64,000 bases of DNA from Candidatus Zixiibacteriota bacterium (GTDB taxonomy: Bacteria; Zixibacteria; MSB-5A5; GN15; JACZUZ01): contig JAJRPJ010000018.1 of NCBI GenBank assembly GCA_024280835.1, positions 69,537 through 133,536 of the forward strand, read 5' to 3'. Made by a program: the position numbers and the translations under genes. Shown here piece by piece: positions 4,750-50,377 of this stretch. The notes beneath the pieces were generated by a model. The model searched no databases and had not been told where the DNA came from. It saw only the letters and a program-made list of their open reading frames with translations. How positions within the stretch are numbered: the first letter of the stretch is position 1; the number at the start of each line of letters is the position of its first letter.

Positions 4750-4981
4750 ATGTATTTATTCTAAAGAGTTATTCTATGTGTATCATGTTCGATTGAGATT
4801 TGAAAGGACATCGCATTCTTCAATACCATAAACCTCATAAATTTGATTCTGTTTCCATTTCTGTGAAATCAATTTCTTGAAATCCTACGGTCTCACAGTT
4901 TATACACCTTTGGGAGAGAACATCGCCAATTCAAAACTGCGGTTATTCTACATTGAAATCTGCTAGCGATATAGGTTGACC

Positions 4982-5010
4982 TTGACAATTCAAACCAGAT
5001 GGGCTATCAT
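4982..5010 (+). promoter_or_regulatory. Sigma70-type promoter candidate upstream of mntH
   Basis: TTGACA (4982-4987), a 17-nt spacer, then TATCAT (5005-5010), about 100 nt upstream of ATG 5107. Confidence 0.45.
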
Positions 5011-5018
5011 CTTGCAAA

Positions 5019-25203: not shown

Positions 25204-25829
25204 TATTGGAGTGAAGTTATAGAAAGCCCAAGAATCGAACCTTCCGCCAGCTCCAAAGCTGGATCCCAGTGATGTGCATTGACCACTAGGCCAGTAGCGC
25301 CGCGGGAAGCAATAGATGTGTAACCAGAACGGTTCGGTGGAATAAGGTCACCACCAATATCAACACCACCTGTACCGTCAGTAAGGCCACCAGTGATTGG
25401 GTCATAACCCTCATACTTGACATTACGACCGCCTGTAGCGGAGTTGTTGTCCTGATTCATCCAAGTAAAGTTTAGACCATGATCTGGCTCACTAGTAGCA
25501 ATGAGCCTGTTCATCGAACCATTACGTTGGTAATCATAGAATGTACAGCCAATCGTCAAACCTCTAACCGCATCTTCGATTCCAGGCGTACAACCAAGAC
25601 TTGAAGAGCTAGAGGTTGCGCCGATGTACGAACCCTGAGTGCGGTCTGCGCCCATAAAGCCACCGGCTTGTACTTGACCGTCAGAAGGCAAGGCATACTT
25701 CACCGTATTAATTGCTTTCAAACGAATTTTTTCTTTTGTGTCGTTGTCGATGCCGTACGATGACTGCACTCCGACGAGGGCCACAAGCGATAACGTAAGG
25801 GAAATCTTAGTTAAGATATTCCTATTCAT
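25182..25829 (-). CDS. 5' part of the same gene: signal peptide plus the start of the propeller (probable start ATG 25829)
   Basis: MNRNILTKISLTLSLVALVGVQSSYG is preceded by a GGAG SD. The ORF ends 22 nt inside the next ORF in another frame. Confidence 0.6.
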   Translation of the reverse strand: MNRNILTKISLTLSLVALVGVQSSYGIDNDTKEKIRLKAINTVKYALPSDGQVQAGGFMGADRTQGSYIGATSSSSSLGCTPGIEDAVRGLTIGCTFYDYQRNGSMNRLIATSEPDHGLNFTWMNQDNNSATGGRNVKYEGYDPITGGLTDGTGGVDIGGDLIPPNRSGYTSIASRGATGLVVNAHHWDPALELAEGSILGLSITSLQYWLTLLV

Positions 25830-27110
25830 TAACTCGCTCCTTTCATTAAGATTTAAAAACGATCTACTTATTTCCTGAACTTTTTTCTTAATTCGACACA
25901 TTCTTTTATAACAAAAACGAAACCTATTACACGTACCTGTTGTATCATCTTTGTTTGAAGCTCTGACTTCACTGAGCTACTCGAGCGCTACGCCTGTCCG
26001 TACCGACAAACCGAATGTGATTGATAGCGATCGAAGACTTAGATTTCGTGTGCTTCCCTTTTCTCCTCCCTCCTACACTGCTAGCGTAGGGAAATCGGCC
26101 CTATAAGGGGGCCAGTCCAAAAACTCTTAGATAATTTACTGTTTCTTAATTTTTTTTCGATCAGTTGTTACTGTGCATTTACGAGAGGTAATTCTACACT
26201 TACAGCAAACTTAGATGGTATCTCACAATAGTTATAGAAAGTTTCTTCGGTTTGCAACATAATGAGCTCGCAACCCAAGCCCGCCTCTATTGTAAGGCGA
26301 ATAACAAATCCCACCATCTTTCTAAGTATTAACTCACGTTGAACTTGATGTCCATACACGAGCTATATTACAGATGTGCAAAAAAATAGGTAGTTTTGGC
26401 TGGTCTCAATGGTTAATCGGCCCAAAGAAACCCGCACTTAGAAAGTAGAACTCTAGGACGGCGATGTCAAGAAGTATTGAGGCAAACCTGGCGCAAAATC
26501 TGCGACAAACTGCTAAAAAGGCGCTTTTATCGCCCCTGATGAGATGGAGCAATAGACAATTGCCTGTTTTGAAACAAATAGTCCCGATTGCCGAGTTCAC
26601 CGTGCATATGAATATATGTAACCTCTAGGCAACAAAGACAAAAAATGCTTCCCCGCTACGCTGATGGGTTCAAATACAATGCTTGAACAGTTATCTATCT
26701 AATGCAATTAGCCAAAGACTTAGATGAAAATATCGATTCAACAGCATTAAACCTACAAGACTAATACTAATGTGCGTTGAAACTCACTGGCAGAATCAAA
26801 GCCCAGAGCCAATACTTTTCGTTGGCGCCTGAAGAAAGACAACGCCTTACGCATTAGCGCTTTAGTAGAAATCTCAATTCAATTCGTGGGCTAACTGCGC
26901 TATCACATAGAAGTAGATTGTAATATTCACAACTGGAGAGGCCGCTCGCGAAACAAATGACATTCAAGACAATGACATTCGAAGCAATGCCACTCACAAT
27001 CACTAATGGGCCGCACTACTCTGATAGACTCGTGGCTACATATAATCTAGCTTTTTTTGCAACAATATCACTAGTCGATAGACCACTAATCATGGCAATC
27101 GCTCTAACAC

Positions 27111-34774: not shown

Positions 34775-37700
34775 TTAAGGGCTGGGGAAACTCCCATTAG
34801 CGGCGGCATTCGCCTGATATGGTTTTCCTGGCGTGACTGGGAAGTTAGTTCCGAATCCAGCTGAGAAACGCGACTGATAGCTCTGCGAGCCAGCCACGAA
34901 ATTATTCACTGTATTGAGCGTTCCAGGGACATTATTGATAATGTCCTGAGCTACAGAGAAGTCCACTTGACGCTCAAATGGTATCATCAGGAAGTTGAAA
35001 TCGTTGGTCGCCGTCGTAATTATCGGATAGCTAACCGCGCCAGGAGCAGGAATCGCCCCAGCTATACTAAAGACAGTATTCACCGATGCATTTACCTGAT
35101 ATATACCGCCAACGCTTACTGCAAAATTCACTCCAAAACCAGCGGCAAAGCGAGATTCAAAGCTTTGCGAGGCCGCCACAAAATTGTTCAAAGTCAGCAC
35201 ATTGCTTGAACCGATGGCCGAAATTAGCTGGTCGGCGGTGGTGATACCTGTATTGGCAAATGGTATGGCAATCAAATTGAAGTTCGTAGTCGAAGTCACT
35301 ACTATTTGATAGTCAAATTCGCCAACACGATTTGAGAGCGCCGAACGTCTACCAAAACCATCAACAGCTTCAATCACATAGAAGTACTGAACTAATGTGT
35401 CACCGATGACATTACCCCCGCCGATATTGTTGTCTGTAAAGGTAATCGTGGCTGTTCCTGTAAAGCCAATCGAATCCAAAGCAGTCGGAGTGAAATAGGC
35501 GCTTGTGCCACGATAGATTACATAATGATCTACAGTTGTCGCCAAACCGCCTGTATCGAGCGTGATTGGTGACCAATCTAGTTGCATAGCATCCAAAGCA
35601 ATCAACGCGCTCAAATCAGCAACAGCTAATGGCGGCGCGGCATTGCCAGCCTCAACAACTGTGATACTCACAACTTCGCTGTCAACAGCTAGCGAATCAT
35701 CTGTAGCAAAGAAGGTCACCGAATAGATTCCAGCTTGCGTGAAATCAGGAGTCCAAGTCAATGAGCCAGTCCCGTTGAGATTGTCGGTGAAGACTGCTCC
35801 GATTGGAAGCGCAGTGGTCGTTAGAATCGGTGTCGACTCTTGATCAGTTGCCGAAACGGGGAAGTTCAAAGTAACATTTTCACTAACAGACTGAGAACCA
35901 ATGAAGGCCAATATCGGTAATTGATTGCCCACTTCCACAACAGTGATAGTAACAGTCTCACCGCTTGCCGCCAGTGAATCATCGGTGGCGAAGAAGTTGA
36001 TATTGTAAATTCCTGCTTGCGTAAATGTTGGCGTCCAGTTGAATGTCCCTGTGCCATCACCATTGTCATTGAATGTGGCGCCAGATGGTAGCGCCGAAGT
36101 TGTCAGGGCTGGGATTGATTCTGCGTCACTGGCGCTGACTATGAAACTCAGCAATGTATTCTCTGGTATTGATTGCGCTCCAATAGCAACCAAGACAGGC
36201 GACTGATTGCCAGCTTCAATAACTGTGATTGTGACAATTTCACTATCAACAGCAGTCGAGGCGTCAGTGGCAAAGAAAGTGACATTATAGACACCAGACT
36301 GTAAGAATGTCGGTGTCCAAGAAAGAGCTCCTGTTCCATCGGCATTATCGACGAATGTTGCTCCAGTCGGCAGAGCCGAAGTAGACAATGTTGGGGTTGA
36401 TTCTGCGTCCGTTGCGCTAATGGCAACATTCAAAGCATTATTCTCAAGAATTGATTGAGCGCCTATCGTCACTAACACTGGTAGTTGGTTGCCAGATTCG
36501 GTAACCGTGATTACAACAACTTCACTGTCAACGGCCAGAACTGCATCAGTGGCAAAGAAAGTCACAGAATAAATACCCGCTTGAGTGAATGTCGGTGTCC
36601 AACTAAAGGCGGCTGTACCATCGGCGTTATCTACGAACGTTGCTCCCAATGGCAATGCGCTAGAAGTCAACACTGGGATTGTTTCGGCGTCGGTGGCGCT
36701 GAGAGCCAAATTCAAAGCGACATTTTCAGAAACCGTTTGTGCGCCAATAGCCGCCAAAACTGGTAATTGGTTGCCCACTTCTGTAACAGTGATTGTAACA
36801 ATCTCACTGTCTACAGCTAGGGAAACATCGGTAGCATAGAAGGTTACTGAATAAACTCCTGATTGAGTAAAGGTTGGAGTCCAGTTGAAAGCTCCTGTGC
36901 CGTCGCCATTGTCAATGAAGCTTGCGCCAGTTGGCAGGGCAGTAGTAGTCAGCGTTGGAATTGATTCAGCGTCAGTTGCCGAAAGAGCAAAACCAAGAGC
37001 GACATTCTCAGCAACTGTTTGCGCGCCAATTGCAGCGAGAACCGGCAATTGGTTACCAGCTTCGATAACAGTGATTGCAACTACTTCAGAATCTGTCAGA
37101 ACACCATCAGATGCGCCAAAGGTCACTGAATAGACACCAGCTTGCACGAATGTAGGATTCCAGCTGAATGCACCTGTGCCATCACCATTGTCAATGAAAC
37201 TTGCTCCAGCGGGAAGAGCGCTGGTTGTCAGAGGTGGAATTGTGCCGTCCGCATCAGTAACGCTGACCACAAAATTCAAGGCCGCGCCTTCAGTTACGGA
37301 TTTCGCACCGATAAGCGCTATGACTGGCGCTTGGTTGCCAGCTTCACTGACACTAATAGTAACTATTTCACTGTCTGAGACGATTCCATCCGAGGCAAAG
37401 AATGTTACAACATAAGTTCCACTCTGCGTGAAATTCGGAGTCCAATCAAGGCCACCAGTTCCATCACCGTTGTCGGTGAAAGTTGCTCCTAGAGGAACAT
37501 TGGTAGCCGACAAAGTCGGGATTGTCGCATCAGCATCAGTGGCAGAAATCCCAAAGTTCAGATTCGCGCCCTCACTAACACCCTTAGGACCGATAGCCGC
37601 CAGAACAGGAGCTTGGTTGCCAGCCGAGTTGACAGTGATAGAAACTACTTCGCTGTCGATTAGTAATCCATCTGAGACAAAGAACGTAACTGAGTAAACT

Positions 37701-40700
37701 CCAGCTTGAACGAAACTTGGAGACCAATCAAATGTTCCAGAGCCAGTTCCGTTGTCAACAAAAGTTGCTCCAGTTGGTAGAGTCGATGTTGTCAGTGTTG
37801 GAATTGTCGCATCAGGGTCAACGGCGGTTATCGCAAAATTCAAGTTCGCGCCCTCATTGACACTCTGGGCGCCAATAGCGCTCAAGACTGGAATCTGATT
37901 TCCCGCTTCATTGACAGTGATAGAAACTGTTTCACTGTCGATCGCCACACCATCAGAAGCTGTGAAGATTACAAAATAGACTCCGTTCTGAGTGAAGTTT
38001 GGTATCCAAGCAAAGTTAGCGGTTCCGTTGCCATTGTCGGTTAGAATTGCACCGAGCGGCAAACCAGTGGCTCCAAAGAACGGTATTGTACCGTCAGCGT
38101 CTAACGCTGAGAGGCCAAAGGCTAAACTTATGTTTTCAGTTGTTGTGCGTGGACCGATTGTCGCCAGCACAGGAATCTGGTTGCCAGATTCGCTAATTGA
38201 GACAGTCACGATTTCACTATCAAGCGCCACGCCATCACTTGCAAAGAAGGTGATTGAATAAACGCCCGACTGAGTGAAATTCGGAGTCCAATTGAAAGTA
38301 CCAGTTCCATCTGCATTGTCGACAAAAGCCGCGCCAATCGGCAATGTGCCAACACTAAGCGCTGGGATTGTCGCATCTGGATCTGTTGCTGAGACTCCAA
38401 ATGTTAGATTCAGTCCCTCTGTCGATGACTGTGAGCCAATCGCCGCCAAAACAGGAGCCTGATTACCAGATTCAGCAACAGTGATTTGAACTACTTCGGA
38501 ATCAACTAAGACACCATCAGATGCGAAGAATGTCACTGAGTAGATACCCGCTTGTGTGAAGTCAGGTGTCCAAGCAAATGACGCTGTGCCATTATTATTG
38601 TCAGTGTATACAGCGCCAATTGGCAAGGCCGAGCTGGTTAGCGCTGGGAATGTGCCATCTGGGTCACTGGAGTTGACTGTGAAACTCAAGAGAGCGTTTT
38701 CTGCAATCGCCTGTGCGCCAATCGCCGCCAAGACTGGTGATTGATTACCTGATTCCAAGACAGTGATGTTGACAATCTCTACATCATCCAGTATGCCATC
38801 GGAGGCAACGAAGGTCACACTATAGACACCAGCTTGAGTAAAATCAGGAGTCCAACTAAACGTTCCTGTGCCGTCACCATTGTCAATGAATGTAGCTCCT
38901 GATGGTAATGAATTGGCTGTCAAAGCCGGAATCGTTGCATCAGGATCACTAGTAGAAATTATGAAACTAAGCAAATTGTTTTCAGTTATTGAACGTGGTC
39001 CAATACTTGCCAGAACTGGAGCCTGATTGCCAGCGTCACCAACTGAGATTGAAACGATTTCACTATCATTAACAATTCCGTCTGAGGCGCGGAAGACAAT
39101 ACTATATAGTCCCGCCTGTGTGAAATCTGGCGCCCAACTGAACGAACCTGTTCCGTCAAGATTATCTGTAAAGGTCGCCCCTAGAGGTAGCGCCGAAGTT
39201 GTCAATGCTGGAATTGTGCCATCGGCATCTGTGGCGCTAGCGCCAAAGCTTAGCAAAATACCTTCGGTAGTTGTCTGAGCGCCAATTGCCGCCAAGACTG
39301 GCGCTTGATTACCAGCGCTATTAACTGTGATTGTCACTTGTTCGCTGTCTATCACTAGACCATCAGATGCAAAGAAAGTTACGACATAGATTCCAGCTTG
39401 CGTAAAGTCTGGTGTCCAATCAAAAGCGCCTGTGCCGTTGGTGTTATCTGTGAATGTCGCACCACTCGGCAAAGCCGAGGTTGTCAGCGCTGGAATTGAA
39501 CCATCAGGATCCGAGGCAGAAACCGCAACTGCCAGCGCCACACCCTCATTGGTTGTCCGTGGGCCAATTGCCGCCAGAGTCGGCGCTTGGTTACCAGCTT
39601 CAAGAACTGTGATTGTGACCACTTCGCTATCGATTGCTACACCGTCAGAGGCCCGGAAGGTCACACTAAATCCACCTGCTTGAGTAAAGTCAGGAGTCCA
39701 GTTGAATGCACCTGTGCCATCGCCATTGTCCACAAAGGTGGCTCCAAGCGGTAAAGTTGTCGTATTCAATGATGGAATAGTTCCGTCGGCATCAGCGGCA
39801 TTGATAGAGAATGCCAACGTAGCGCCTTCTGTGACGTTTTGTGAGCCGATTAGCGTCAACACTGGCGCTTGATTGCCAGCGTCGTTAATTGTGATAGTCA
39901 CAACTTCACTGTCAATAGCCACGCCATCAGAAGCGGTGAAGACTACTATATAGCTACCCGCTTGTGTAAAGTCTGGCGTCCAATCGAAGGTGGCTGTACC
40001 GTTTAGATTATCTGTCAAACTTGCGCCAGTAGGTAACCCAACTGCAGCTAGCGCAGGAATTGTCGCATCGGCATCTGTTGCGCTAAGCGCAAAGTTAAGA
40101 TTGACACCCTCATTACTATTTTGTGGGCCAATGAGAGCCAAAATAGGAACTTGATTCCCTGCAGAGTTGATAGTGATAGAAACTACTTCACTATCGACAA
40201 CTACGCCGTCATTGGCGGCAAAAGTAACCAGATAGATTCCAGCTTGCGTAAAGTCTGGAGTCCAGCTAAATGTACCTGTTCCGTCAAGATTATCTGTGAA
40301 TGTGGCTCCGCTCGGTAGTGGTAAGCCACTAAGTGTCGGAATTGTGCCATCGAGATCGGAGCTAGAAATTCCAAAGCTCAACGTGACGCCCTCATTGGCG
40401 CTTTGCGAACCTATCGCTGCCAGAACTGGCGGCTGGTTACCTGCCTCATTGACAGTCACAGAAACTACTTCACTGTCAATCGCGACTCCATCCGAGGCAA
40501 ACACTGTCATTGAATAACTGCCACTTTGCGTGAATGTCGGCGTCCAATTCAATGAAGCTGTGCCATTAAGATTGTCTGTGAAACTCGCTCCTGCCGGAAC
40601 CCCAGTGGCAGTCAACGCAGGGATTGTTCCATCAGGGTCAGTGGCGCTCGCTCCGAAAGTCAGATTAGCGCCTTCAACTATGCTTTGCGGTCCGATAAGA

Positions 40701-43700
40701 GCCAAAACTGGATTCTGATTGCCAGCGTCGAAGACAGTGACAGTGACGATTTCGCTATCAACTGCCAAAGAATCATCGGTAGCAAAGAACGTGATATTGA
40801 ATGTTCCCGCTTGAGTGAAATCAGGAGTCCAAGACAGCGATCCTGTTCCGTCAAGATTATCTGTAAAAGTCGCCCCAAGTGGTAGGCCGATAGTTGTCAG
40901 AGTTGGCGCGATTCCGTCGGTGTCACTGGCTGAAACTGCGATTGCTAAGGCTAATCCTTCGGTAATACTTTGCGCGCCGATGCCTGCAAGAATCGGCAGT
41001 TGGTTACCCGCTTCAGTGACTGTAATAGTTACTATTTCACTGTCGATCAATGCTCCATCAGAAGCAAAGAAAGTGACCGCAAAAGAACCACTCTGAACGA
41101 ATGTCGGCGACCAACTGAAACTTCCTGTTCCGTCAAGATTGTCTGTAAAACTTGCTCCAAGCGGCAATAGTGAAGTCGAAAGAGCTGGTATTGTCAGGTC
41201 GACATCAGACGCCGAAACTGCAAAGCCAAGCGCTACGCCTTCGGTGACACTTTGCGCGCCAATCGTCGCAAGAATTGGGGCTTGGTTACCGAGTTCGTTG
41301 ACAGTGATGAGAACTATTTCGCTATCAAGTGTGACACCATCAGAAGCAAAAACTGTGACTGAGTAACTTCCACTCTGCGTAAAGTCTGGCGTCCAATTGA
41401 AGGCGCCCGTTCCGTCACCATTGTCTGTAAACGTTGCTCCAGTCGGAATCGGAGCTATACTCAATGCTGGGATTGTGCTATCTGGATCCAAGGCCGAAAC
41501 TGCGAAAGACAACAAGATTCCCTCATTGGTTCCCTGTGGGCCAACTGCGGCCAGAACAGGAATCTGATTGCCTGCGTCAATGACTGTAATTGAAACAATC
41601 TCACTATCAGTCACTAGACCGTCAGTCGCTCTAATAGTGACTGAATAGACTCCCGCCTGCGTAAAGAGCGGAGTCCAAGTCAAACTAGCTGTGCCGTCAA
41701 GATTATCTACGAACGCAGCGCCAAGCGGCAAACCAACTGCGCTCAAACCAGGGATTGTCGCGTCGGCGTCGATGGCAGTGATACTAACAGATAGTAAGGC
41801 GCCTTCTGTGATTGACTGAGCGCCAATGGCGGCCAGAACTGGAGGCTGGTTACCGGCTTCATTGACAACAACCGAAACAATTTCGCTGTCAGATATTAGG
41901 CCGTCACCAGCGAAGAAAGTAATCGAATATGCTCCGCTCTGGGTGAAGTCTGGAGTCCAGTCGAATGTTGCTGTTCCGTCGCCATTATCAATTAGAGTTG
42001 CGCCAAGTGGCAAAGCCGAAGATGTGAAGCTCGGAGTTGTGCCATCTGGGTCTGAAGCGGAAAGACCAAAGTTCAGCAGAGCGCCTTCATTGGTTGACCG
42101 AGCGCCAATCGCGGCTAGGACAGGTGTTTGATTACCTGATTCGAGTACGGTAATCGCAACAATCTGACTATCTTTGAGAATACCATCAGAAGCAAAGAAA
42201 GTTACAGTATAACTGCCACTTTGTGTGAAATCAGGCGACCAAGACAAAGTTCCTGTTCCATTACCATTGTCAACAAAACTTGCTCCACCTGGTAGTACGG
42301 TCGAAGTCAAAACTGGTGTTGTGCCATCAGGGTCAGATGCATTGATTCCGAAAGCCAGCGAAGCTCCTTCAGTGACTGATTGTGCGCCAATAGCCACCAT
42401 AATCGGAGATTGGTTGCCGGCTTCATTAATACTGATAGTGACAACTTCACTATCAACCAAAGCGCCATCAGAAGCGAAGAAAGTTATTGCATACGTTCCG
42501 CTTTGTGTGAAGTCCGGTGTCCAGTCGAATACACCTGTGCCATTTGCATTATCTATATAGGATGCTCCGATCGGTAAACCAGAGGCAGTTAGTGTCGGTG
42601 TTGTTGCATCTGGATCTGAAGCCGCAGTTGCGAAATTGAGATTGACACCTTCAAGAGTTGCCTTTGAGCCGATTGAAACCAGAATCGGCGCTTGGTTGCC
42701 AGACTCGTTGACACTGACAGTAACAATTTCACTGTCGGAACTAAGTCCGTCAGTAGCTATAAAGGTTACAAAGTAAGTACCACTTTGAACAAATGTCGGC
42801 GACCAATCAAAGACACCTGTTCCGTCGAGATTGTCGATGAATGTTGCGCCAGTCGGCAAAGAAGTGACACTCAATGTCGGAATCGTTACATCTGGATCTG
42901 ACGCGGATATTCCAAAGTTAAGATTGGCGCCTTCAAGAACACCTCGCGCGCCGATTGTCGCTAGAACTGGCGGTTGGTTGCCGGCTTCAAGAACCGTGAT
43001 GACAACTGTTTCACTATCGGTGATGACACCATCAGAGGCGCGGAAAACAATATTGTAAGTACCACCTTGAGCAAAATCTGGATTCCAGCTAAATGAACCA
43101 GTTCCATTGCCATTATCGGCAAAGATTGCGCCACTCGGCAACGCTGATGTTGTCAGCACTGGAGTTGTTCCGTCTGGATCAGTTGCGCCAACTCCGAAAG
43201 CCAAACTAAGTCCTTCGGTCGTTGACTGAGCGCCAATCGCCGACAGAACAGGCGCTTGGTTACCAACTTCAATTACTGTAATCGAAACAATTTCGCTATC
43301 CAAGAGAATTCCATCGGAGGCCTTAAAGGTAACCGAGTAGACACCCGCTTGAGTGAAGCCCGGAGTCCAAGACAAGGTTCCAGTTCCATCAAAATTGTCT
43401 GCGAAGGTTGCCCCTATTGGTAATGAGGTGACGCTCAAGCCCGGAATGGTCGCATCAGGATCTGAGGCAGTCACTACCAACGAAAGCAGAACCCCTTCTG
43501 TCGTAAATTGCGAACCAATGGTCGCCAACAATGGCGACTGATTGCCAACTTCATTGACTGTGATAGTGACAATTTCGCTATCGGAGAGGAGTCCGTCATT
43601 AGCGAAGAAAGTTATGTTGTAGATTCCGTTTTGCGTGAAGCTCGGTGTCCAATCAAAGGCTGCCGTGCCATCGCCGTTGTCTATATATATAGCGCCTGTC

Positions 43701-46700
43701 GGAAGAGGCCCTGTTGTTAGAGTTGGAGTGGTGGCGTCAGGGTCTGTAGCGCTAGTGACAAAAGATAGCGCAATTCCTTCATTAACATTTTGCGAACCGA
43801 TAACCGCCAAAACCGGTGACTGGTTACCAGACTCTGTCACAGTGATGATAATAATTTCACTATCAACTATGGCTCCATCACTTGCACGGAAAGTCACATT
43901 GTAACTTCCACCTTGAACAAAAGTCGGGGTCCAATCGAACGATCCTGTACCGTTGCCATTATCAACAAAGGTAGCGCCAGCCGGCAAACCAACAATACTC
44001 AAAGCTGGATTGATGTTATCAGGATCTGTCGCCGAAATCGCGACACTCAACAGGACGCCCTCAGAAACACTTTGTGAACCAATAGTCGCCAACACTGGTG
44101 GTTGATTACCCGCCTCGTTAATTGTAATCGAGACTATTTCACTGTCATTCAATAATCCATCAGAGGAGAAGAAAGTCACACTGTAAGTGCCACTCTGAGT
44201 AAAACTAGGAGTCCAATTAAATGCAGCAGTGCCGTCTCCGGTGTCTGTATAGACAGCGCCGATCGGTAGTGGAGTTGTGGTCATAGCAGGGAAGGTTCCA
44301 TCAGCGTCACTTGAGGTGACAACAAAGCTCATCGTCGCGCCTTCAAGAGCGCTCTTGGCGCCGATTGCCAATTGCACTGGCCGCTGATTACCTGCTTCAA
44401 GTACAGTAATCGAAACAGTCTCGCTATCCGAAACTGTTCCATCGGAGGCCACAAAAATAATCAAGAATGTACCAGACTGTGTGAAGTCTGGTGTCCAATC
44501 AAATACACCTGTTCCATCACTGTTGTCTGTATAACTGGCTCCAGTTGGTAAAGACAATGCGCTCAACAGCGGAATTGTTCCGTCAGGATCAGTCGCTGAG
44601 CTGGAGAAGTTTAGATTTACACCTTCGGTGGTTGACCGTGAACCAATCGTCGCCAATAGTGGAATTTGATTTCCAGCCTCTGTGACTGTTATCAATACAA
44701 CCTCACTATCATTCAAAACTCCATCGGAAGCAAAGAATGTCACACTATAAACGCCAGCTTGAACAAAACTTGGTGTCCAAGAGAACGACGCGGTTCCGTC
44801 AAGATTGTCTACAAATGTAGCGCCAGCTGGAAGCGAAGTAGCGCTAAGATTCGGCGTGGTCAAGTCTGGATCATTACCAGTGACGGTGAAGGCCAACACA
44901 ACATTTTCTGTTACGCTCTGCGCTCCGATTGCCGCCAAAACTGGAGCCTGGTTGCCAGCGCTATTTATTGTAATCGCCACAATTTCGCTATCATTGGCGA
45001 ATCCATCAGAGGCAAAGAAGGTGACATTGTATGTGCCACTCTGTGCGAAAGTTGGTGTCCAGTTAAATGTTCCAGTTCCATTGGCGTTGTCTGTGAAAGT
45101 TGCGCCAGCCGGCAATGAAGAAGCAGTTAACGCCGGGAAACCACCATCAGGGTCACTGGCTGAAGTTGCAAATGTTAGCAGAGCGCCCTCAGATCCGCTT
45201 TGCGGCCCGATAGCAGCTAGTACTGGAGCTTGATTTCCAGATTCAGTAACAGTGATGGTAACAACCTCAGAGTCAACTGCCAGAGAATCATCAGTTGAGA
45301 AGAAGGTGACACTGTATATGCCCGTTTGAACAAAGCTTGGCGTCCAGTCAAAGACTCCTGTGCCATTGCCATTGTCGACAAAAGTTGCGCCAGACGGCAA
45401 AGCAGTTGTAGTCAAAGCCGGCAAGCCGCCCTCGGGATCAGTTGCTGTGACAGGCACATTTAGATTTATTCCTTCGGCAACAGTCTGCGCGCCAATACTC
45501 GCTAGAATTGGCAACTGATTACCGGCTTCGATGACTGTGATTGCGACAACTTCACTGTCTGTAGCAATGCCGTCAGTTGCGCTAAAAGTCAGATTGACAA
45601 CACCACTTTGGGTCAAATCTGGGGTCCATGAGAATGTTCCAGTTCCGTCAAGATTGTCGACAAACGAAGCGCCAGTCGGTAAAGGCAAAGCGCTGAATGT
45701 CGGAATTGTCGCATCTAGGTCTGAAGCGGCAATACTGAAACTCAAGAGAGTTCCTTCAAGAATTGATTGTGCCCCAATCGCGGCCAAAACAGGCGTTTGA
45801 TTTCCCGCATCAGTGACTGTAATAGTGACGACCTCGGAATCAACAGCCAGCGAGTCATCAGTAGCAAAGAACGTGACAGTATAATTGCCACTCTGCGTAA
45901 AGTCTGGTATCCAACTAAATGTTCCTGTACCATTGGCATTATCGAGATACGATGCGCCAGCAGGAATTCCTGTAGCGCTCATAGTGGGTGAGGCGCCTTC
46001 AATATCTGTCGCGGAAGTTCCGAACGTCAGATTAATATTTTCTGTGACAATCTGCGCTCCAATACTTGCCAGGACAGGAAGCTGATTCCCCGCATCTACG
46101 ATTGTGACTGTTACAATTTCACTATCAGTTGCAAACCCATCAGCGGCAAAGAATGTAATATTAAACACACCGCTTTGAACGAAACCAGGTGTCCAGTCCA
46201 ATGTACCAGTTCCATCGAGGTTGTCTGTGAAGGCCGCTCCAGAAGGCAATGTCGAAACACTTAGCGCTGGAGTTGTCTGGTCGAGATCACTGGCTGACAC
46301 ATTCACCAACAATTGCAACCCTTCGGCGCCGGCTTGTGCCCCAATCACCGCCAAGACCGGTAATTGATTCCCAGCGTCATTAACAGTAATAGTGACTATT
46401 TCGCTATCTGATAGCGCACCATCATTGGCGAAGAAGGTCACATTGTATGCTCCCGCTTGAACAAAACTCGGAGTCCAGCTGAGTGTCCCTGTTCCATCAG
46501 TGTTATCAGTAAAGCTCGCTCCAAGCGGCAAACCAGTGACGCTAAGCGCTGGTATTGTTAGGTCAGGATCAGCGGCATTGATGCTCACAGACAGTAGAGC
46601 GCCCTCTATTACAGATTGGGCTCCAATTGCTGATAGAATCGGCGCCTGATTTCCGGCTTCATTAACTGTAATAGAAACAGTCTCACTATCGGCGGTCAAA

Positions 46701-49700
46701 GAATCATCTGTGGCGATGAATATCACCAAGTAACTTCCACTTTGTGTGAATGTCGGTGTCCAATCGAATGTGGCAGTGCCGTTGCCATTGTCGATAAAAG
46801 CAGCTCCCGTCGGCGCGTTTGAAACGCTGAGCGCTGGAACGGGACCGTCTAAATTCGTAGCCGTTAGCGGCAAATTCAAATTGATACCCTCAGTAACACT
46901 TTGCGGTCCAATAATCGCCAAAACTGGTAGCTGATTTCCCGCATCGACAACTGTGATTGAAACTATTTCGCTGTCGTTCAATAAACCATCGGAAGTAAAG
47001 AAGGTCACATTGTATACACCAGACTGAATGAAGTTCGGTGTCCAATTCAGTGAACCAGTACCGTTAAGATTGTCTGTATAAGTAGCGCCAGTTGGCAATC
47101 CAGTGGCGCTAAGCGTCGGAATCGTCGCATCAGGGTCTATTGCAGAAGTTGCGAATGACAGCGCTGCACCTTCAGTCACACTCTGTGAACCAATTGCAGT
47201 CAAGACAGGGGCTTGATTACCTGCTTCGGTAATTGTGATGGTGACGACTTCGCTATCGATGACTGTGCCGTCGCTTGCAGAGAAAGTAACTATATAGGCG
47301 CCTGCTTGTACGAATGTCGGTGACCAATCAAATGTTCCACTACCATCGGCATTGTCGATAAAGGTTGCTCCCGCAGGTAAAGGGGAGGCACTGACACTTG
47401 GAATTGTACCGTCTGGGTCGGTAGAGTTTATATTGAAATTCAGATTCAAACCCTCGGCCACTCCTTGTGCGCCAATAGCGCTCAAAACTGGCGACTGATT
47501 GCCAGCTTCAAGAACAGTGATTTCGACGATTTCTGAATCGGCCAGCACACCATCGGTGGATATGAACGTCACATTGAAAATTCCCGCCTGATTGAAAGCT
47601 GGCGTCCATGAGAATGATCCCGTGCCGTTCGTGTTATCTGTATAGCTGGCGCCAACTGGAAGGTTTGTTGCATTCAGTGTTGGGATTGTTCCATCTGGGT
47701 CGCTGGCTGATGTCGCAAAAGCCAAGACCGCTCCTTCAGATACAGACTTGATACCAATTGCAGCCTGAACTGGCGCCTGATTCCCTGATTCAAAAACATT
47801 GATACTTACGATTTCAGAATCCGTAGCCAGACCATCACCAGCAAAGAAAGTCACACTATAAGAGCCAGCTTGAGTAAAATCTGGTGTCCAACTGAATGAA
47901 CCAGTCCCATCAGCATTATCAATATATGTAGCGCCGCTTGGTAGCGCAGAGGTCGTCATAACTGCGATCGTAGAATCCGAATCGGTGGCCGCTGTCGCAA
48001 AGGAGAGGTTCACACCTTCTGTAACTGACTGACCGCCAATAAGCGACAGCGCTGGAGTATGATTGCCAAACTCAGTAACTGTAATAGAGACAATCTCTGA
48101 ATCTAATCCACCGGAACCATCTGCTGCAAAGAACGTGACTGAAAAAGCGCCAGACTGGTTGAATAGTGGCGTCCATGAGAAACTACCCGTTCCATCACCA
48201 TTATCAGTGAAACTTGCTACGCTCGGCAATGCGTTAGTTGTCAACACTGGTATTGGTCCATCTGCATCTGCCGCAGAAACGATAAATGCCAGATTGCTTC
48301 CCTCGACAATCGCTTGCGGGCCAATGGCCGTCAGAATTGGCGCTTGATTAACATTGGTAACGGTTATAGCAACTATCTCAGAATCAGTAGCGGCGCCATC
48401 AGTTGCAAAGAAAGTCACATTATAAAGGCCAGCTTGAGTAAAGTCTGGTGTCCAACTGAATGATCCTGTGCCATTCAAATTATCCGTGTAACTAGAACCA
48501 AGTGGCAATCCTGTTGCGCTCAATGTCGGTGTGGTGCCATCGGCATCACTTGCAGTTGTTCCAAATGATAGAAGCACATTCTCATTGACGGCTTGTGCGC
48601 CGATAGCCGCTTGTACTGGAGCTTGATTAACATTGGTAACGGTTATAGCAACTATCTCAGAATCAGTAGCGGCGCCATCAGTTGCAAAGAACGTCACATT
48701 ATAAAGTCCAGCTTGAGTGAAGTCTGGCGTCCAGCTGAATGAACCCGTGCCATTCAGATTATCTGTGTAACTAGAACCAAGTGGCAATCCTGTTGCGCTT
48801 AGTGTCGGTGTGGTGCCATCGGCATCACTAGCGGTTGTTCCAAAGGATAGAAGTACATTCTCATTAACTGCTTGTGCGCCAATCAAAGCCAATACCGGAG
48901 CTTGATTAACATTCGTAACTGTAATAGCAACAATCTCAGAATCGGTAGCGGCGCCATCACTAGCGAAGAAGGTCACATTGAAGATTCCAGCTTGAGTAAA
49001 GTCTGGCGTCCAGCTGAATGAACCAGTGCCATTCAGATTATCTGTATAACTAGAACCAAGTGGTAATCCTGTTGCGCTCAATGTCGGTGTGGTGCCATCG
49101 GCATCACTGGCGGTTGTTCCGAATGCTAGAAGTACATTCTCATTGACTGCCTGTGGGCCGATAGCCGCTTGTACTGGAGCTTGATTCACATTGGTAACTG
49201 TAATAGCTACCACTTCAGAATCAGTAGCGGCGCCATCAGTTGCAAAGAAAGTCACATTGAACACACCAGCTTGAGTAAAGTCTGGTGTCCAACTGAATGA
49301 TCCTGTGCCATTCAAATTATCCGTGTAACTAGAACCAAGTGGTAATCCTGTTGCGCTCAATGTCGGTGTGGTGCCATCGGCATCACTGGCTGTTGTGCCA
49401 AAGGATAATAGTACGTTTTCATTGACTGCCTGTGGGCCGATAGCCGCTTGTACTGGAGCTTGATTCACATTGGTAACTGTAATAGCTACCACTTCAGAAT
49501 CAGTAGCGGCGCCATCAGTTGCAAAGAAAGTCACATTGAAGATTCCAGCTTGAGTGAAGTCTGGTGTCCAGCTGAATGATCCTGTGCCATTCAGATTATC
49601 TGTATAACTAGAACCAAGTGGCAATCCTGTTGCGCTTAGAGTCGGTGTTGTGCCATCGGCATCACTAGCTGTTGTGACAAAGGATAATAGTACGTTTTCA

Positions 49701-50377
49701 TTGACTGCCTGTGGGCCGATAGCCGCTTGTACTGGAGCTTGATTCACATTGGTAACTGTAATAGCTACCACTTCAGAATCTGTAGCGGCGCCATCAGTTG
49801 CAAAGAAGGTCACATTGAACACACCAGCTTGAGTAAAGTCTGGTGTCCAACTGAATGATCCTGTGCCATTCAGATTATCTGTGTAACTAGAACCAAGCGG
49901 CAATCCTGTCGCGCTTAGAGTCGGTGTGGTTCCATCGGCATCACTAGCTGTTGTGCCAAAGGATAATAGTACGTTTTCGTTGACTGCTTGCGAACCAATC
50001 AAAGCCAAAATTGGAGCCTGATTGACATTGGTAACTGTAATAGCAACCACTTCACTATCGACAGCCAGCGAATCGTCAGTCGCGAAGAAAGTCACACTAT
50101 AAACACCTGATTGCAAGAACGTCGGTGTCCAAGACAACGAACCAGTGCCGTTAAGATTATCTGTAAAGACCGCCCCAGTCGGCAGGGCGGAAGTTGTCAG
50201 CGCTGGAATTGATTCGATATCACTAGCAGAGATTACAACCGAGAGCAGAACGTTCTCAGATGTAGCTTGTGCGCCAATCGGACTTAGCACGGGCAAATTG
50301 TTCGCCTGCGCTAAAGCCTTTGCCGAAATCAAACAAAACACCAGCCCTGTTAAAAGCGCTATTTTTTTGATAAACAT
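34775..50377 (-). CDS. Giant (5,200 aa) secreted protein: ~52 cadherin-like/He_PIG repeats + FN3-like domain + two unknown C-terminal modules. No dockerin and no T9SS CTD.
   Basis: One uninterrupted 15.6-kb ORF. Signal peptide MFIKKIALLTGLVFCLISAKALA. Repeat unit as in the 2139-aa protein. C-terminal tail (289 aa) LDWSPITLD...HYVIYRG...YFYVIEAVDGFGRRS (FN3-like) followed by duplicated modules. Confidence 0.9.
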   Translation of the reverse strand: MFIKKIALLTGLVFCLISAKALAQANNLPVLSPIGAQATSENVLLSVVISASDIESIPALTTSALPTGAVFTDNLNGTGSLSWTPTFLQSGVYSVTFFATDDSLAVDSEVVAITVTNVNQAPILALIGSQAVNENVLLSFGTTASDADGTTPTLSATGLPLGSSYTDNLNGTGSFSWTPDFTQAGVFNVTFFATDGAATDSEVVAITVTNVNQAPVQAAIGPQAVNENVLLSFVTTASDADGTTPTLSATGLPLGSSYTDNLNGTGSFSWTPDFTQAGIFNVTFFATDGAATDSEVVAITVTNVNQAPVQAAIGPQAVNENVLLSFGTTASDADGTTPTLSATGLPLGSSYTDNLNGTGSFSWTPDFTQAGVFNVTFFATDGAATDSEVVAITVTNVNQAPVQAAIGPQAVNENVLLAFGTTASDADGTTPTLSATGLPLGSSYTDNLNGTGSFSWTPDFTQAGIFNVTFFASDGAATDSEIVAITVTNVNQAPVLALIGAQAVNENVLLSFGTTASDADGTTPTLSATGLPLGSSYTDNLNGTGSFSWTPDFTQAGLYNVTFFATDGAATDSEIVAITVTNVNQAPVQAAIGAQAVNENVLLSFGTTASDADGTTPTLSATGLPLGSSYTDNLNGTGSFSWTPDFTQAGLYNVTFFATDGAATDSEIVAITVTNVNQAPILTAIGPQAIVEGSNLAFIVSAADADGPIPVLTTNALPSVASFTDNGDGTGSFSWTPLFNQSGAFSVTFFAADGSGGLDSEIVSITVTEFGNHTPALSLIGGQSVTEGVNLSFATAATDSDSTIAVMTTSALPSGATYIDNADGTGSFSWTPDFTQAGSYSVTFFAGDGLATDSEIVSINVFESGNQAPVQAAIGIKSVSEGAVLAFATSASDPDGTIPTLNATNLPVGASYTDNTNGTGSFSWTPAFNQAGIFNVTFISTDGVLADSEIVEITVLEAGNQSPVLSAIGAQGVAEGLNLNFNINSTDPDGTIPSVSASPLPAGATFIDNADGSGTFDWSPTFVQAGAYIVTFSASDGTVIDSEVVTITITEAGNQAPVLTAIGSQSVTEGAALSFATSAIDPDATIPTLSATGLPTGATYTDNLNGTGSLNWTPNFIQSGVYNVTFFTSDGLLNDSEIVSITVVDAGNQLPVLAIIGPQSVTEGINLNLPLTATNLDGPVPALSVSNAPTGAAFIDNGNGTATFDWTPTFTQSGSYLVIFIATDDSLTADSETVSITVNEAGNQAPILSAIGAQSVIEGALLSVSINAADPDLTIPALSVTGLPLGASFTDNTDGTGTLSWTPSFVQAGAYNVTFFANDGALSDSEIVTITVNDAGNQLPVLAVIGAQAGAEGLQLLVNVSASDLDQTTPALSVSTLPSGAAFTDNLDGTGTLDWTPGFVQSGVFNITFFAADGFATDSEIVTVTIVDAGNQLPVLASIGAQIVTENINLTFGTSATDIEGASPTMSATGIPAGASYLDNANGTGTFSWIPDFTQSGNYTVTFFATDDSLAVDSEVVTITVTDAGNQTPVLAAIGAQSILEGTLLSFSIAASDLDATIPTFSALPLPTGASFVDNLDGTGTFSWTPDLTQSGVVNLTFSATDGIATDSEVVAITVIEAGNQLPILASIGAQTVAEGINLNVPVTATDPEGGLPALTTTALPSGATFVDNGNGTGVFDWTPSFVQTGIYSVTFFSTDDSLAVDSEVVTITVTESGNQAPVLAAIGPQSGSEGALLTFATSASDPDGGFPALTASSLPAGATFTDNANGTGTFNWTPTFAQSGTYNVTFFASDGFANDSEIVAITINSAGNQAPVLAAIGAQSVTENVVLAFTVTGNDPDLTTPNLSATSLPAGATFVDNLDGTASFSWTPSFVQAGVYSVTFFASDGVLNDSEVVLITVTEAGNQIPLLATIGSRSTTEGVNLNFSSSATDPDGTIPLLSALSLPTGASYTDNSDGTGVFDWTPDFTQSGTFLIIFVASDGTVSDSETVSITVLEAGNQRPVQLAIGAKSALEGATMSFVVTSSDADGTFPAMTTTPLPIGAVYTDTGDGTAAFNWTPSFTQSGTYSVTFFSSDGLLNDSEIVSITINEAGNQPPVLATIGSQSVSEGVLLSVAISATDPDNINPALSIVGLPAGATFVDNGNGTGSFDWTPTFVQGGSYNVTFRASDGAIVDSEIIIITVTESGNQSPVLAVIGSQNVNEGIALSFVTSATDPDATTPTLTTGPLPTGAIYIDNGDGTAAFDWTPSFTQNGIYNITFFANDGLLSDSEIVTITVNEVGNQSPLLATIGSQFTTEGVLLSLVVTASDPDATIPGLSVTSLPIGATFADNFDGTGTLSWTPGFTQAGVYSVTFKASDGILLDSEIVSITVIEVGNQAPVLSAIGAQSTTEGLSLAFGVGATDPDGTTPVLTTSALPSGAIFADNGNGTGSFSWNPDFAQGGTYNIVFRASDGVITDSETVVITVLEAGNQPPVLATIGARGVLEGANLNFGISASDPDVTIPTLSVTSLPTGATFIDNLDGTGVFDWSPTFVQSGTYFVTFIATDGLSSDSEIVTVSVNESGNQAPILVSIGSKATLEGVNLNFATAASDPDATTPTLTASGLPIGASYIDNANGTGVFDWTPDFTQSGTYAITFFASDGALVDSEVVTISINEAGNQSPIMVAIGAQSVTEGASLAFGINASDPDGTTPVLTSTVLPGGASFVDNGNGTGTLSWSPDFTQSGSYTVTFFASDGILKDSQIVAITVLESGNQTPVLAAIGARSTNEGALLNFGLSASDPDGTTPSFTSSALPLGATLIDNGDGTATFDWTPDFTQSGAYSITFFAGDGLISDSEIVSVVVNEAGNQPPVLAAIGAQSITEGALLSVSITAIDADATIPGLSAVGLPLGAAFVDNLDGTASLTWTPLFTQAGVYSVTIRATDGLVTDSEIVSITVIDAGNQIPVLAAVGPQGTNEGILLSFAVSALDPDSTIPALSIAPIPTGATFTDNGDGTGAFNWTPDFTQSGSYSVTVFASDGVTLDSEIVLITVNELGNQAPILATIGAQSVTEGVALGFAVSASDVDLTIPALSTSLLPLGASFTDNLDGTGSFSWSPTFVQSGSFAVTFFASDGALIDSEIVTITVTEAGNQLPILAGIGAQSITEGLALAIAVSASDTDGIAPTLTTIGLPLGATFTDNLDGTGSLSWTPDFTQAGTFNITFFATDDSLAVDSEIVTVTVFDAGNQNPVLALIGPQSIVEGANLTFGASATDPDGTIPALTATGVPAGASFTDNLNGTASLNWTPTFTQSGSYSMTVFASDGVAIDSEVVSVTVNEAGNQPPVLAAIGSQSANEGVTLSFGISSSDLDGTIPTLSGLPLPSGATFTDNLDGTGTFSWTPDFTQAGIYLVTFAANDGVVVDSEVVSITINSAGNQVPILALIGPQNSNEGVNLNFALSATDADATIPALAAVGLPTGASLTDNLNGTATFDWTPDFTQAGSYIVVFTASDGVAIDSEVVTITINDAGNQAPVLTLIGSQNVTEGATLAFSINAADADGTIPSLNTTTLPLGATFVDNGDGTGAFNWTPDFTQAGGFSVTFRASDGVAIDSEVVTITVLEAGNQAPTLAAIGPRTTNEGVALAVAVSASDPDGSIPALTTSALPSGATFTDNTNGTGAFDWTPDFTQAGIYVVTFFASDGLVIDSEQVTITVNSAGNQAPVLAAIGAQTTTEGILLSFGASATDADGTIPALTTSALPLGATFTDNLDGTGSFSWAPDFTQAGLYSIVFRASDGIVNDSEIVSISVGDAGNQAPVLASIGPRSITENNLLSFIISTSDPDATIPALTANSLPSGATFIDNGDGTGTFSWTPDFTQAGVYSVTFVASDGILDDVEIVNITVLESGNQSPVLAAIGAQAIAENALLSFTVNSSDPDGTFPALTSSALPIGAVYTDNNNGTASFAWTPDFTQAGIYSVTFFASDGVLVDSEVVQITVAESGNQAPVLAAIGSQSSTEGLNLTFGVSATDPDATIPALSVGTLPIGAAFVDNADGTGTFNWTPNFTQSGVYSITFFASDGVALDSEIVTVSISESGNQIPVLATIGPRTTTENISLAFGLSALDADGTIPFFGATGLPLGAILTDNGNGTANFAWIPNFTQNGVYFVIFTASDGVAIDSETVSITVNEAGNQIPVLSAIGAQSVNEGANLNFAITAVDPDATIPTLTTSTLPTGATFVDNGTGSGTFDWSPSFVQAGVYSVTFFVSDGLLIDSEVVSITVNSAGNQAPVLAAIGPKGVSEGANLNFGISATDADATIPTLSATNVPLGATFTDNGDGTGGLDWTPNFTQSGTYVVTFFASDGIVSDSEIVTISVSEAGNQAPVIALIGAKSVTEGAALNFVVSVTDADGTIPPLTTSALPAGASFIDNGDGTGAFSWNPTFVQAGVYSVTFGASDGVLTDSEVVAITVIEAGNQLPVLAAIGAQTVAENVALGFALSATDAESIPTLTTTALPTGASFIDNGDGTGAFNWTPTFTQSGVYSVTFYATDVSLAVDSEIVTITVTEVGNQLPVLAAIGAQTVSENVALNLALSATDAETIPVLTSSALPLGATFVDNADGTAAFSWTPTFTQAGIYSVTFFATDAVLAVDSEVVVITVTESGNQLPVLVTIGAQSILENNALNVAISATDAESTPTLSTSALPTGATFVDNADGTGALSWTPTFLQSGVYNVTFFATDASTAVDSEIVTITVIEAGNQSPVLVAIGAQSIPENTLLSFIVSASDAESIPALTTSALPSGATFNDNGDGTGTFNWTPTFTQAGIYNINFFATDDSLAASGETVTITVVEVGNQLPILAFIGSQSVSENVTLNFPVSATDQESTPILTTTALPIGAVFTDNLNGTGSLTWTPDFTQAGIYSVTFFATDDSLAVDSEVVSITVVEAGNAAPPLAVADLSALIALDAMQLDWSPITLDTGGLATTVDHYVIYRGTSAYFTPTALDSIGFTGTATITFTDNNIGGGNVIGDTLVQYFYVIEAVDGFGRRSALSNRVGEFDYQIVVTSTTNFNLIAIPFANTGITTADQLISAIGSSNVLTLNNFVAASQSFESRFAAGFGVNFAVSVGGIYQVNASVNTVFSIAGAIPAPGAVSYPIITTATNDFNFLMIPFERQVDFSVAQDIINNVPGTLNTVNNFVAGSQSYQSRFSAGFGTNFPVTPGKPYQANAAANGSFPSP
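35645..50302 (-). repeat. Array of ~52 tandem 91-97-aa cadherin-like/He_PIG coding repeats (aa 26-4911)
   Basis: Periodicity was read from the protein. The count is estimated from length (4,886 aa at about 94 aa per unit). Confidence 0.85.
48356..50029 (-). repeat. Six near-identical 279-bp (93-aa) tandem copies at the 5' end of the giant gene (repeats 2-7)
   Basis: The unit NVNQAPVQAAIGPQAVNENVLLSFGTTASDADGTTPTLSATGLPLGSSYTDNLNGTGSFSWTPDFTQAG(V/I/L)(F/Y)NVTFFATDGAATDSE(V/I)VAITVT occurs six times. 49142-49260 is letter-identical to 49421-49539, and the first 81 nt recur at 49700. Confidence 0.95.

Follow-up and report, generated by a model that had tools for sequence, protein, structure and literature searches.

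The described modules that most closely resemble the subject of this work are the type I dockerin (PF00404), the type-A C-terminal domain (CTD; TIGR04183 / PF18962) of the type IX secretion system (T9SS), and the carbohydrate-binding modules (CBMs) and other accessory modules of secreted enzymes. Solved structures of T9SS CTDs are all-β sandwiches of about seven strands. Here we analyze a pair of tandem modules, the twin module, located at the C-terminus of a giant, 5200-aa protein encoded in a 64-kb stretch of a Candidatus Zixiibacteriota genome (contig JAJRPJ010000018.1, positions 69,537 to 133,536; hereafter the window, in which all features are numbered from its first letter). Like the dockerin, the pair is internally duplicated and occupies the C-terminal place after Ig-like repeats within one locus, but it lacks the Ca-binding D-x-N-x-D-G repeats and comprises 180 aa compared to about 60 aa. 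Like the T9SS CTD, it ends a large secreted protein in a T9SS-bearing lineage and has a similar module size of about 85 aa, but the module includes predicted helices, shows no hidden Markov model (HMM) or profile kinship to the CTD and, in relatives, is located upstream of a true CTD. As with CBMs and other accessory modules, the pair follows an FN3 domain on varied glycoside hydrolases, lyases, esterases and proteases, is optional among paralogs, extracellular, and rich in aromatic and polar residues; in contrast to CBMs, it matches no CBM or lectin in Pfam or the PDB, is an obligate tandem with an α-helix in each half, and its binding activity is putative. The carrier protein itself belongs with the tandem-95/Ig-like-repeat surface proteins of Zixibacteria and other FCB-group bacteria, which include its orthologs named by NCBI; its repeat body matches He_PIG and Big_9. 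The NCBI names, 'Ig-like domain-containing protein' and 'tandem-95 repeat protein', describe only the repeats, and the end consisting of the FN3 domain and the pair is unannotated in the sources checked.

The giant open reading frame (ORF) is on the minus strand (34775..50377), and its last 180 residues consist of module 1 (aa 5021-5115, 95 aa; 35033-35317, minus strand; HMM score 131 bits in the window) and module 2 (aa 5116-5200, 85 aa; 34778-35032, minus strand), the last residues of which, ...GSFPSP, directly precede the stop codon (34775-34777, minus strand). The duplication is real because the two halves align in BLASTP with 35 identities over 82 positions (43%, E = 3e-19), and the profiles of the first and second copies align in hhalign with 100% probability (E = 1e-40). 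An earlier note on the window, made from the sequence alone, had quoted two paralogous segments at 34778-35305; both exist at the end of the giant ORF, of which this interval represents the last 176 codons, but the coordinates refer to the minus strand, and a plus-strand reading is meaningless. The repeat boundary drawn in that note had to be moved: the unit starts about 11 residues earlier, where FDYQIVVTSTTNFN pairs with VSYPIITTATNDFN, an earlier start that is also seen as the alignment of FDYQIVVTSTTNFNLIAIPF with VSYPIITTATNDFNFLMIPF, so the units are those delineated above. Module 2 lacks the final strand and the linker of module 1 and terminates with ...FPSP. The whole protein matches the twin-module profile with 247 bits in two domains, and an HMM scan detected no further copy in the rest of the window. 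N, S, T, Q, G and F are abundant in the pair, which has only 4 basic and 7 acidic residues among its 180 and contains neither Cys nor Trp.

Modelled alone with AlphaFold, the pair yields a confident structure (pLDDT 94.1, with all five models at 89.8 or above; pTM 0.87), in which each module has the predicted succession β-β-α-β-β-β-β, module 1 contributing one helix of 8 residues and module 2 two helices. Because the pTM is high for two modules, the model suggests a single compact pseudo-dimeric unit with a fixed mutual orientation rather than beads on a string. This model was built because, in a Foldseek search of the PDB with an AlphaFold2 model of the last 289 aa (me8b566a45cd7; pLDDT 92.3, pTM 0.87), the FN3 fold of the first ~105 residues dominated the matches and left the pair uninformed. 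Foldseek comparison of the pair model with the PDB, a check that the earlier note had proposed, gave no match at E <= 1e-3; the weak matches, to aspartate decarboxylase, HA70, vicilin and the PM2 capsid, were dismissed as chance, the best reaching only E = 0.022 (probability 0.15, TM ~0.2).

Sequence searches agree with the earlier statement that the module belongs to no assignable family. Pfam and NCBIfam scans at E <= 10 of the last 186 and 374 aa returned only noise for the module, no model of either database matched it in any scanned relative, and no match of profiles A1 and A2 among the PDB sequences was better than E ≈ 1. CBM families were absent from the Pfam matches at E <= 10. The twin-module family is undescribed in Pfam-A (2025 copy), NCBIfam 20.0 and the PDB, and no source names it; a cluster look-up of the relatives gave no informative names, and our search of the literature on Zixibacteria with cohesin and dockerin found nothing relevant. 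Judging by the model, the pair probably adopts a new fold, and it is best described as a new domain family within a known kind, the accessory modules of secreted surface proteins.

Conservation of the pair in homologs, on which the earlier note had made its proposal depend, is extensive: the pair shows 57-88% identity across 43 metagenome proteins and 17 loci from metagenome-assembled genomes (MAGs). Overall, it closes the same giant protein in about 20 syntenic loci, most of them from MAGs with a Zixibacteria label. The 43 relatives, retrieved by a word-indexed protein search, are all metagenomic and all 'hypothetical', with a Pfam domain on record only for the weakest, partial match. The 17 loci, found by scanning species-representative genomes, show 64-88% identity and are labelled Candidatus Zixiibacteriota, 'uncultured Ignavibacteriales/Ignavibacteriaceae', FCB group or plain 'bacterium'. 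In each of these loci, the pair occurs once, at the extreme end of a giant ORF, and nearly all untruncated orthologs stop at the same position, with an invariant F-P. The synteny of the locus is also kept, the giant being followed, often, by a ~350-aa dockerin or TIG protein and then by a 1500-2200-aa Ig-repeat protein.

Several short homologs do not represent additional architectures. In two ENA assemblies (L001 1866-10840 and L003 1271-7402), the orthologous giant gene is split, apparently by frameshifts, into many short called genes; therefore, the database 'proteins' P0026, P0027, P0033, P0039 and P0040 are fragments or frameshifted versions. P0026 and P0027 were considered as independent small genes and rejected; like P0032, they are small hits on long contigs that represent fragments of frameshifted giant genes. 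P0041 (156 aa), with the C-terminal half of the module at its end, and P0043 (143 aa), with a ~35-aa module fragment near its N-terminus, join part of the module to unrelated sequence on contigs of ~0.7 kb and are probably chimeras of assembly or gene calling.

The pair extends far beyond the orthologs of the giant. An exhaustive HMM search of 1.84 billion cluster representatives with the single-module profile A2 yielded 487 representatives at E <= 1e-3, among them 137 at E <= 1e-10. The architecture was read from the best 150 of the 487 matches, and every untruncated protein among these 150 contains exactly two adjacent copies. The twin-module family, as defined by profiles A2 and A4, has the consensus TT..T..N.I.LP(L/F) ... 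A..L...I ... Q.Y ... NF.V..G..Y.V ... (W/F)P, and the window protein, with its two copies, falls within this definition. The 133 distant representatives are divided into stand-alone proteins of about 195-240 aa that consist of a signal peptide and the pair (group a; 20), proteins with the pair at the extreme C-terminus, usually ending in ...W-P (group b; 37), proteins in which the pair is followed by a tail of 205-220 aa (group c; 69), and other arrangements (7). A profile search of a set of 5.8 billion proteins added 469 further proteins; the 120 listed are mostly of group a and all unnamed. One listed stand-alone relative comes from a MAG labelled Candidatus Polarisedimenticolaceae. The word-indexed search, when run with the pair of a pre-CTD relative, returned only 2 proteins.

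The tail of group c comprises a ~125-aa domain, denoted X, and a T9SS type-A CTD, with FlgD_ig detected by Pfam in 37 and Por_Secre_tail in 21 of the 48 scanned relatives; in those 37, the pair is located ~125 residues upstream of a genuine CTD. The heads in the 48 scanned relatives include FG-GAP/ASPIC, RGL11-like, GH88, GH31, GH2, DUF5060, GDSL, S8 with Fib_succ_major and LRR, and PKD, and those of group b are adhesin-like or unassigned (CarboxypepD_reg, SdrD_B, SBBP, Cleaved_Adhesin, VWA, LTD, MG2). The pair is preceded in multi-domain relatives by an FN3 domain ending in ...YFY.V.AVD..G..S..S..(V/I)GEFD. P0070, P0152, P0168 and P0181 are T9SS cargoes that consist of the pair, the X domain and the CTD, with no other head, and on one 72-kb contig the pair is present in two of ~7 adjacent T9SS cargo genes.

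The X domain (consensus APH.V.G.I...F.A...P..LT..S.GC...G.W.VQC..F.S.W..G..L.V) is always found between the pair and the CTD in P0059-P0111 (for example, aa 380-511 of P0059) and has no Pfam or NCBIfam match; P0066 and P0067 stop right after it, without a CTD. The single credible match to the pair model in BFVD, A0A8D9C8P8 (E = 2e-5, query-normalized TM 0.57), is a 587-aa 'putative hemin binding protein' of an uncultured marine phage and is, most simply, a distant twin-module protein with the pair-X-CTD architecture. Hemin binding was set aside as a functional clue, this match being read as a family member of group c size. No relatives of the pair were found on IMG/VR contigs.

These architectures bear on the sorting role that the earlier note had listed among the possible functions of the pair. 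In such a role, the pair would stand in for the T9SS CTD as a new type of C-terminal signal for secretion or sorting and take the giant across or onto the outer membrane. The extreme C-terminal position, where in all orthologs no more than a few residues come after the invariant F-P, would suit such a signal, and the giant has no recognized export tag besides its Sec signal peptide. Nevertheless, we consider this role highly improbable. A canonical T9SS CTD is already present downstream of the pair in 37 of the 48 relatives, and ~200-aa stand-alone secreted forms exist, including the one from the MAG labelled Candidatus Polarisedimenticolaceae. There is no profile kinship to the known C-terminal devices: hhalign of the module profile against 21 T9SS CTDs, the three of the window included, gave a probability of 0.2%, no Pfam or NCBIfam model of the type-A CTD matched at E <= 10, and no HMM match to the type-B CTD (TIGR04131 / PF13585 CHU_C) was detected. 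The α/β secondary structure with helices predicted for the module differs from the all-β fold generally known for CTDs. The dockerins of the window align to the module profile with a probability of only 0.3%, and no Dockerin_1 match at E <= 10 was found in the last 374 aa, by the same scan that detects the true dockerins of the neighbors; on the hhalign results, a divergent CTD and a divergent dockerin were both rejected. The end of the protein, ...GKPYQANAAANGSFPSP, contains neither the hydrophobic stretch nor the basic tail of sortase, exosortase and rhombosortase signals (LPXTG, PEP-CTERM, GlyGly-CTERM), and the NCBIfam models of sorting domains are unmatched, the only hit, sorting_LPXTATN (E = 0.49-1.9), being noise far under its cut-off.

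The two halves were compared across 151 proteins. Modules 1 and 2 of the same protein share 51% identity on average, whereas first copies are 35% and second copies 33% identical to the modules of other proteins; in 92% of the proteins, identity is higher within the protein than to others. At the same time, in 95% of the proteins, module 1 resembles the first copies of other proteins more closely than their second copies. High identity within proteins, together with retained positional identity, fits a single ancient duplication, after which the halves underwent concerted evolution or co-evolved.

The residues invariant across the family (T, N, P, A, L, I, Q, N-F, G, Y and also F) look mostly structural. 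A different set of positions, fixed within a lineage and differing between lineages, clusters in β3, β4, the β4-β5 loop and β5 of both halves, the Zixibacteria group having, for example, the pattern SQS(F/Y)xSRFxAGFGxNF...YQxNA and group c the pattern CNSVAxW..QGYxQY.P....TNF...YYVNVT. In module 1 of the window protein, the alignment of orthologs delineates a candidate functional patch in β4 and the β4-β5 loop, SQSFESRFAAGFGVNF (35123..35170, minus strand), in which 32 orthologs agree without exception on Q, S, R, A, A, G, G, N and F; it is exactly at the positions of this segment that the consensus of the Zixibacteria group departs from the other classes of the family. Its mirror in module 2, SQSYQSRFSAGFGTNF (34841..34888, minus strand), is delineated by conservation in both the orthologs and the family.

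Part of this conservation could be accounted for if the pair were purely structural, a rigid C-terminal cap, stalk or folding nucleus that stabilizes or spaces the FN3 domain and the Ig repeats without binding anything. The family-wide invariant T, N, P, A, L, I, G, Y and F resemble core or turn positions, the junction between the FN3 domain and the pair (VGEFDY) is rigidly conserved, and the place between head and CTD in T9SS cargoes is spacer-like. We regard a solely structural role as unlikely: the lineage-wise polar conservation mirrored in both halves exceeds what a spacer needs, secreted proteins consisting of the pair alone are common, which would be odd for a spacer, and the pair is found in only a subset of neighboring T9SS cargoes.

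We tentatively favor, as a serious though far from secure possibility, that the pair acts as a self-contained binding module without catalytic activity, equipped with two mirrored sites, the ligand of which is more probably a glycan or another polymer than a specific protein. Besides the conservation, the obligate pairing and the co-evolution of the halves, this view draws on the autonomy of the pair, which is evident from the many 193-230-aa proteins that consist only of a signal peptide and the pair and from the T9SS cargoes with no other head. The combination of the FN3 domain and the pair behaves like a mobile accessory cassette of secreted enzymes and adhesin-like fibers, given the variety of heads and the presence of the pair in only two of the ~7 T9SS cargoes of one locus, and its composition, nearly uncharged, free of Cys and with abundant N, S, T, Q, G and F, is in keeping with an extracellular binding domain. 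Under this interpretation, for which we infer the binding function, the location of the sites and the nature of the ligand, the last 180 residues would form one folded unit of two tandem, pseudo-symmetric copies of an ~85-aa α/β module; the mirrored sites would comprise β3 and β4, the loop that connects β4 to β5, and β5 itself (S-Q-S-x-x-S-R-F-x-A-G-F-G-x-N-F ... Y-Q-x-N); and, on the giant, the pair would serve as the recognition or attachment end of the Ig-repeat fiber. The ligand might be a repetitive polymer, with a glycan on a substrate or on a cell surface likelier than a specific protein, because carbohydrate-active heads are frequent and the composition is polar and aromatic.

Several observations weigh against this interpretation. 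The pair resembles no known lectin, CBM or adhesin tip in sequence or structure (Pfam, PDB), so that nothing positive points to a ligand, and the conserved polar residues may, in the modelled structure, be buried at the interface of the modules and play a purely structural part. The heads are heterogeneous, including proteases, FG-GAP and phosphatase-like domains, and accordingly indicate no single class of substrate. Because half of the relatives own a T9SS anchor, the role of the pair may differ between architectures. Finally, a conserved gene next to the stand-alone subfamily hints at a protein partner.

That neighboring gene, which encodes a secreted protein, was observed following stand-alone pair genes (products of 193-222 aa) in three loci (L021 8001-9537, L022 8001-9988 and L023 929-2816). 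Its product in L022 (8600-9985) is 42% identical to that in L023 (1542-2813; E = 1e-40), and L021 8692-9534 matches more weakly. In L021, which comes from a MAG labelled Candidatus Polarisedimenticolaceae, an extracytoplasmic function (ECF) sigma factor and a 145-aa ORF are encoded just upstream. The stand-alone pair and its neighbor look like a small operon in other lineages.

The body of the giant consists of dozens of He_PIG, Big_9 and cadherin-like Ig repeats recognized by Pfam, with E values in the two halves of the protein of 6e-134 and 3e-125 for He_PIG and of 6e-112 and 9e-111 for Big_9. As read from the translation, the protein starts with a signal peptide, MFIKKIALLTGLVFCLISAKALA|Q (50306..50377, minus strand), with an SPase I-type A-x-A cleavage site that was placed by sequence pattern and not by a predictor. 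The FN3-like domain that the earlier note had placed before the pair (aa ~4919-5017; 35327..35623, minus strand) is borne out by the AlphaFold model and Foldseek, with probability 1.00 to 1k85 (TM 0.76, target-normalized), 3mpc (0.63) and others. The Pfam fn3 HMM is below threshold for this domain in the window and matches the equivalent domain in relatives. The domain closes with the junction motif YFY.(I/V).AVD..G..S..SN.VGEFD, found family-wide, which leads directly into module 1. Across 34778-50377 (minus strand), we also observed high-scoring, fragmentary Pfam matches to Golvesin_C, DUF807, DHDPS, InlK_D3, Rax2_3 and DUF3707; these look like summed noise from ~50 Ig-like repeats rather than true domains because no stretch passes on its own.

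The locus around the giant encodes a cohesin-dockerin set in a T9SS-bearing, Zixibacteria-like genome (50418-59135, 59722-60927, 27228-34729 and 20907-21797, all on the minus strand). T9SS type-A CTDs are present at the ends of the 903-aa protein, which contains Ig repeats, the 700-aa and 893-aa proteins, which contain Ig repeats and a cohesin, and the 296-aa protein. Dockerins are C-terminal in the 2139-aa Ig-repeat protein and in the 361-aa and 401-aa proteins. This inventory suggests a T9SS-anchored surface scaffold that recruits dockerin proteins. The 933-aa protein (22402-25203, minus strand) contains SxDxGxTW motifs and ends in dockerin-like repeats. As the earlier note had pointed out, the pair occupies the C-terminal spot where the locus neighbors carry a dockerin or a T9SS CTD. 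No other large protein encoded in the locus lacks both.

This distribution raises the possibility of locus-specific docking, in which the pair, as an analog of the dockerin, would bind a protein encoded nearby and so fix the fiber to the scaffold, in line with the recognition or partner-binding role of the earlier note, which is plausible as such. The partner could be any member of the locus, including the 700-, 893- and 903-aa proteins anchored by T9SS, with their cohesin or other modules. All other large proteins of the locus have either a CTD (903, 700, 893 and 296 aa) or an end that is a dockerin or resembles one (2139, 361, 401 and 933 aa), and the giant carries the pair in the same place; the synteny of the locus is kept in related MAGs, and the conserved neighbor gene of the stand-alone relatives makes a protein partner conceivable. 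We nevertheless find locus-specific docking doubtful, given that the family extends well outside the cohesin-dockerin setting, neither cohesin nor dockerin ranking within the top 25 Pfam families by frequency in the 48 relatives or occurring in the 9 proteins with a C-terminal pair, and that hhalign against dockerin gave a probability of 0.3%. A broader and comparably speculative proposal, which we also deem rather unlikely, is that the pair represents a third C-terminal surface-attachment device, beside the dockerin and the T9SS CTD, in the FCB group and other diderms: a pseudo-dimer with a new fold that would dock fibers and enzymes non-covalently onto an envelope component or scaffold, with the stand-alone forms of ~200 aa acting as free competitors or adaptors.

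Irrespective of the ligand of the putative binding module that we favor, the twin-module family comprises hundreds of sequence clusters, always in secreted proteins that are 'hypothetical' in every source, and its definition would provide an annotation for the C-terminal cassettes found on numerous T9SS cargo enzymes and on the giant surface proteins of uncultured Zixibacteria. With a confident model that lacks a PDB analog, the pair is a good target for structure determination. If it truly serves for attachment or recognition, this would explain how a fiber of 5,200 residues without a dockerin or CTD joins the surrounding cohesin-dockerin and T9SS system and would provide a new building block for surface display; if it is merely a binding or spacer domain, the outcome would be a new domain of unknown function.

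Additional observations concern other genes of the window. The 933-aa protein is conserved in the locus, being 30% identical over its full length to L002 15941-19294 (E = 3e-97); its SxDxGxTW-like motifs resemble, by eye, BNR/Asp-box repeats, and it terminates in duplicated dockerin-like GDFNHDNTFNIADVTAGIARIF segments. Neither its ORF nor the 239-aa ORF (25182-25901, minus strand) has a Pfam match. Among the unrelated neighbors at 9777-11267 (minus strand), 11319-12608 (minus strand) and 13145-14713 (plus strand) are a protein of the OmpA family carrying thrombospondin type-3 repeats, a bactofilin-like protein and a diguanylate cyclase of the GAF-GGDEF type. Further along the window, NagZ-like GH3, AnmK and SpoIID-like genes suggest a cell-wall recycling cluster.

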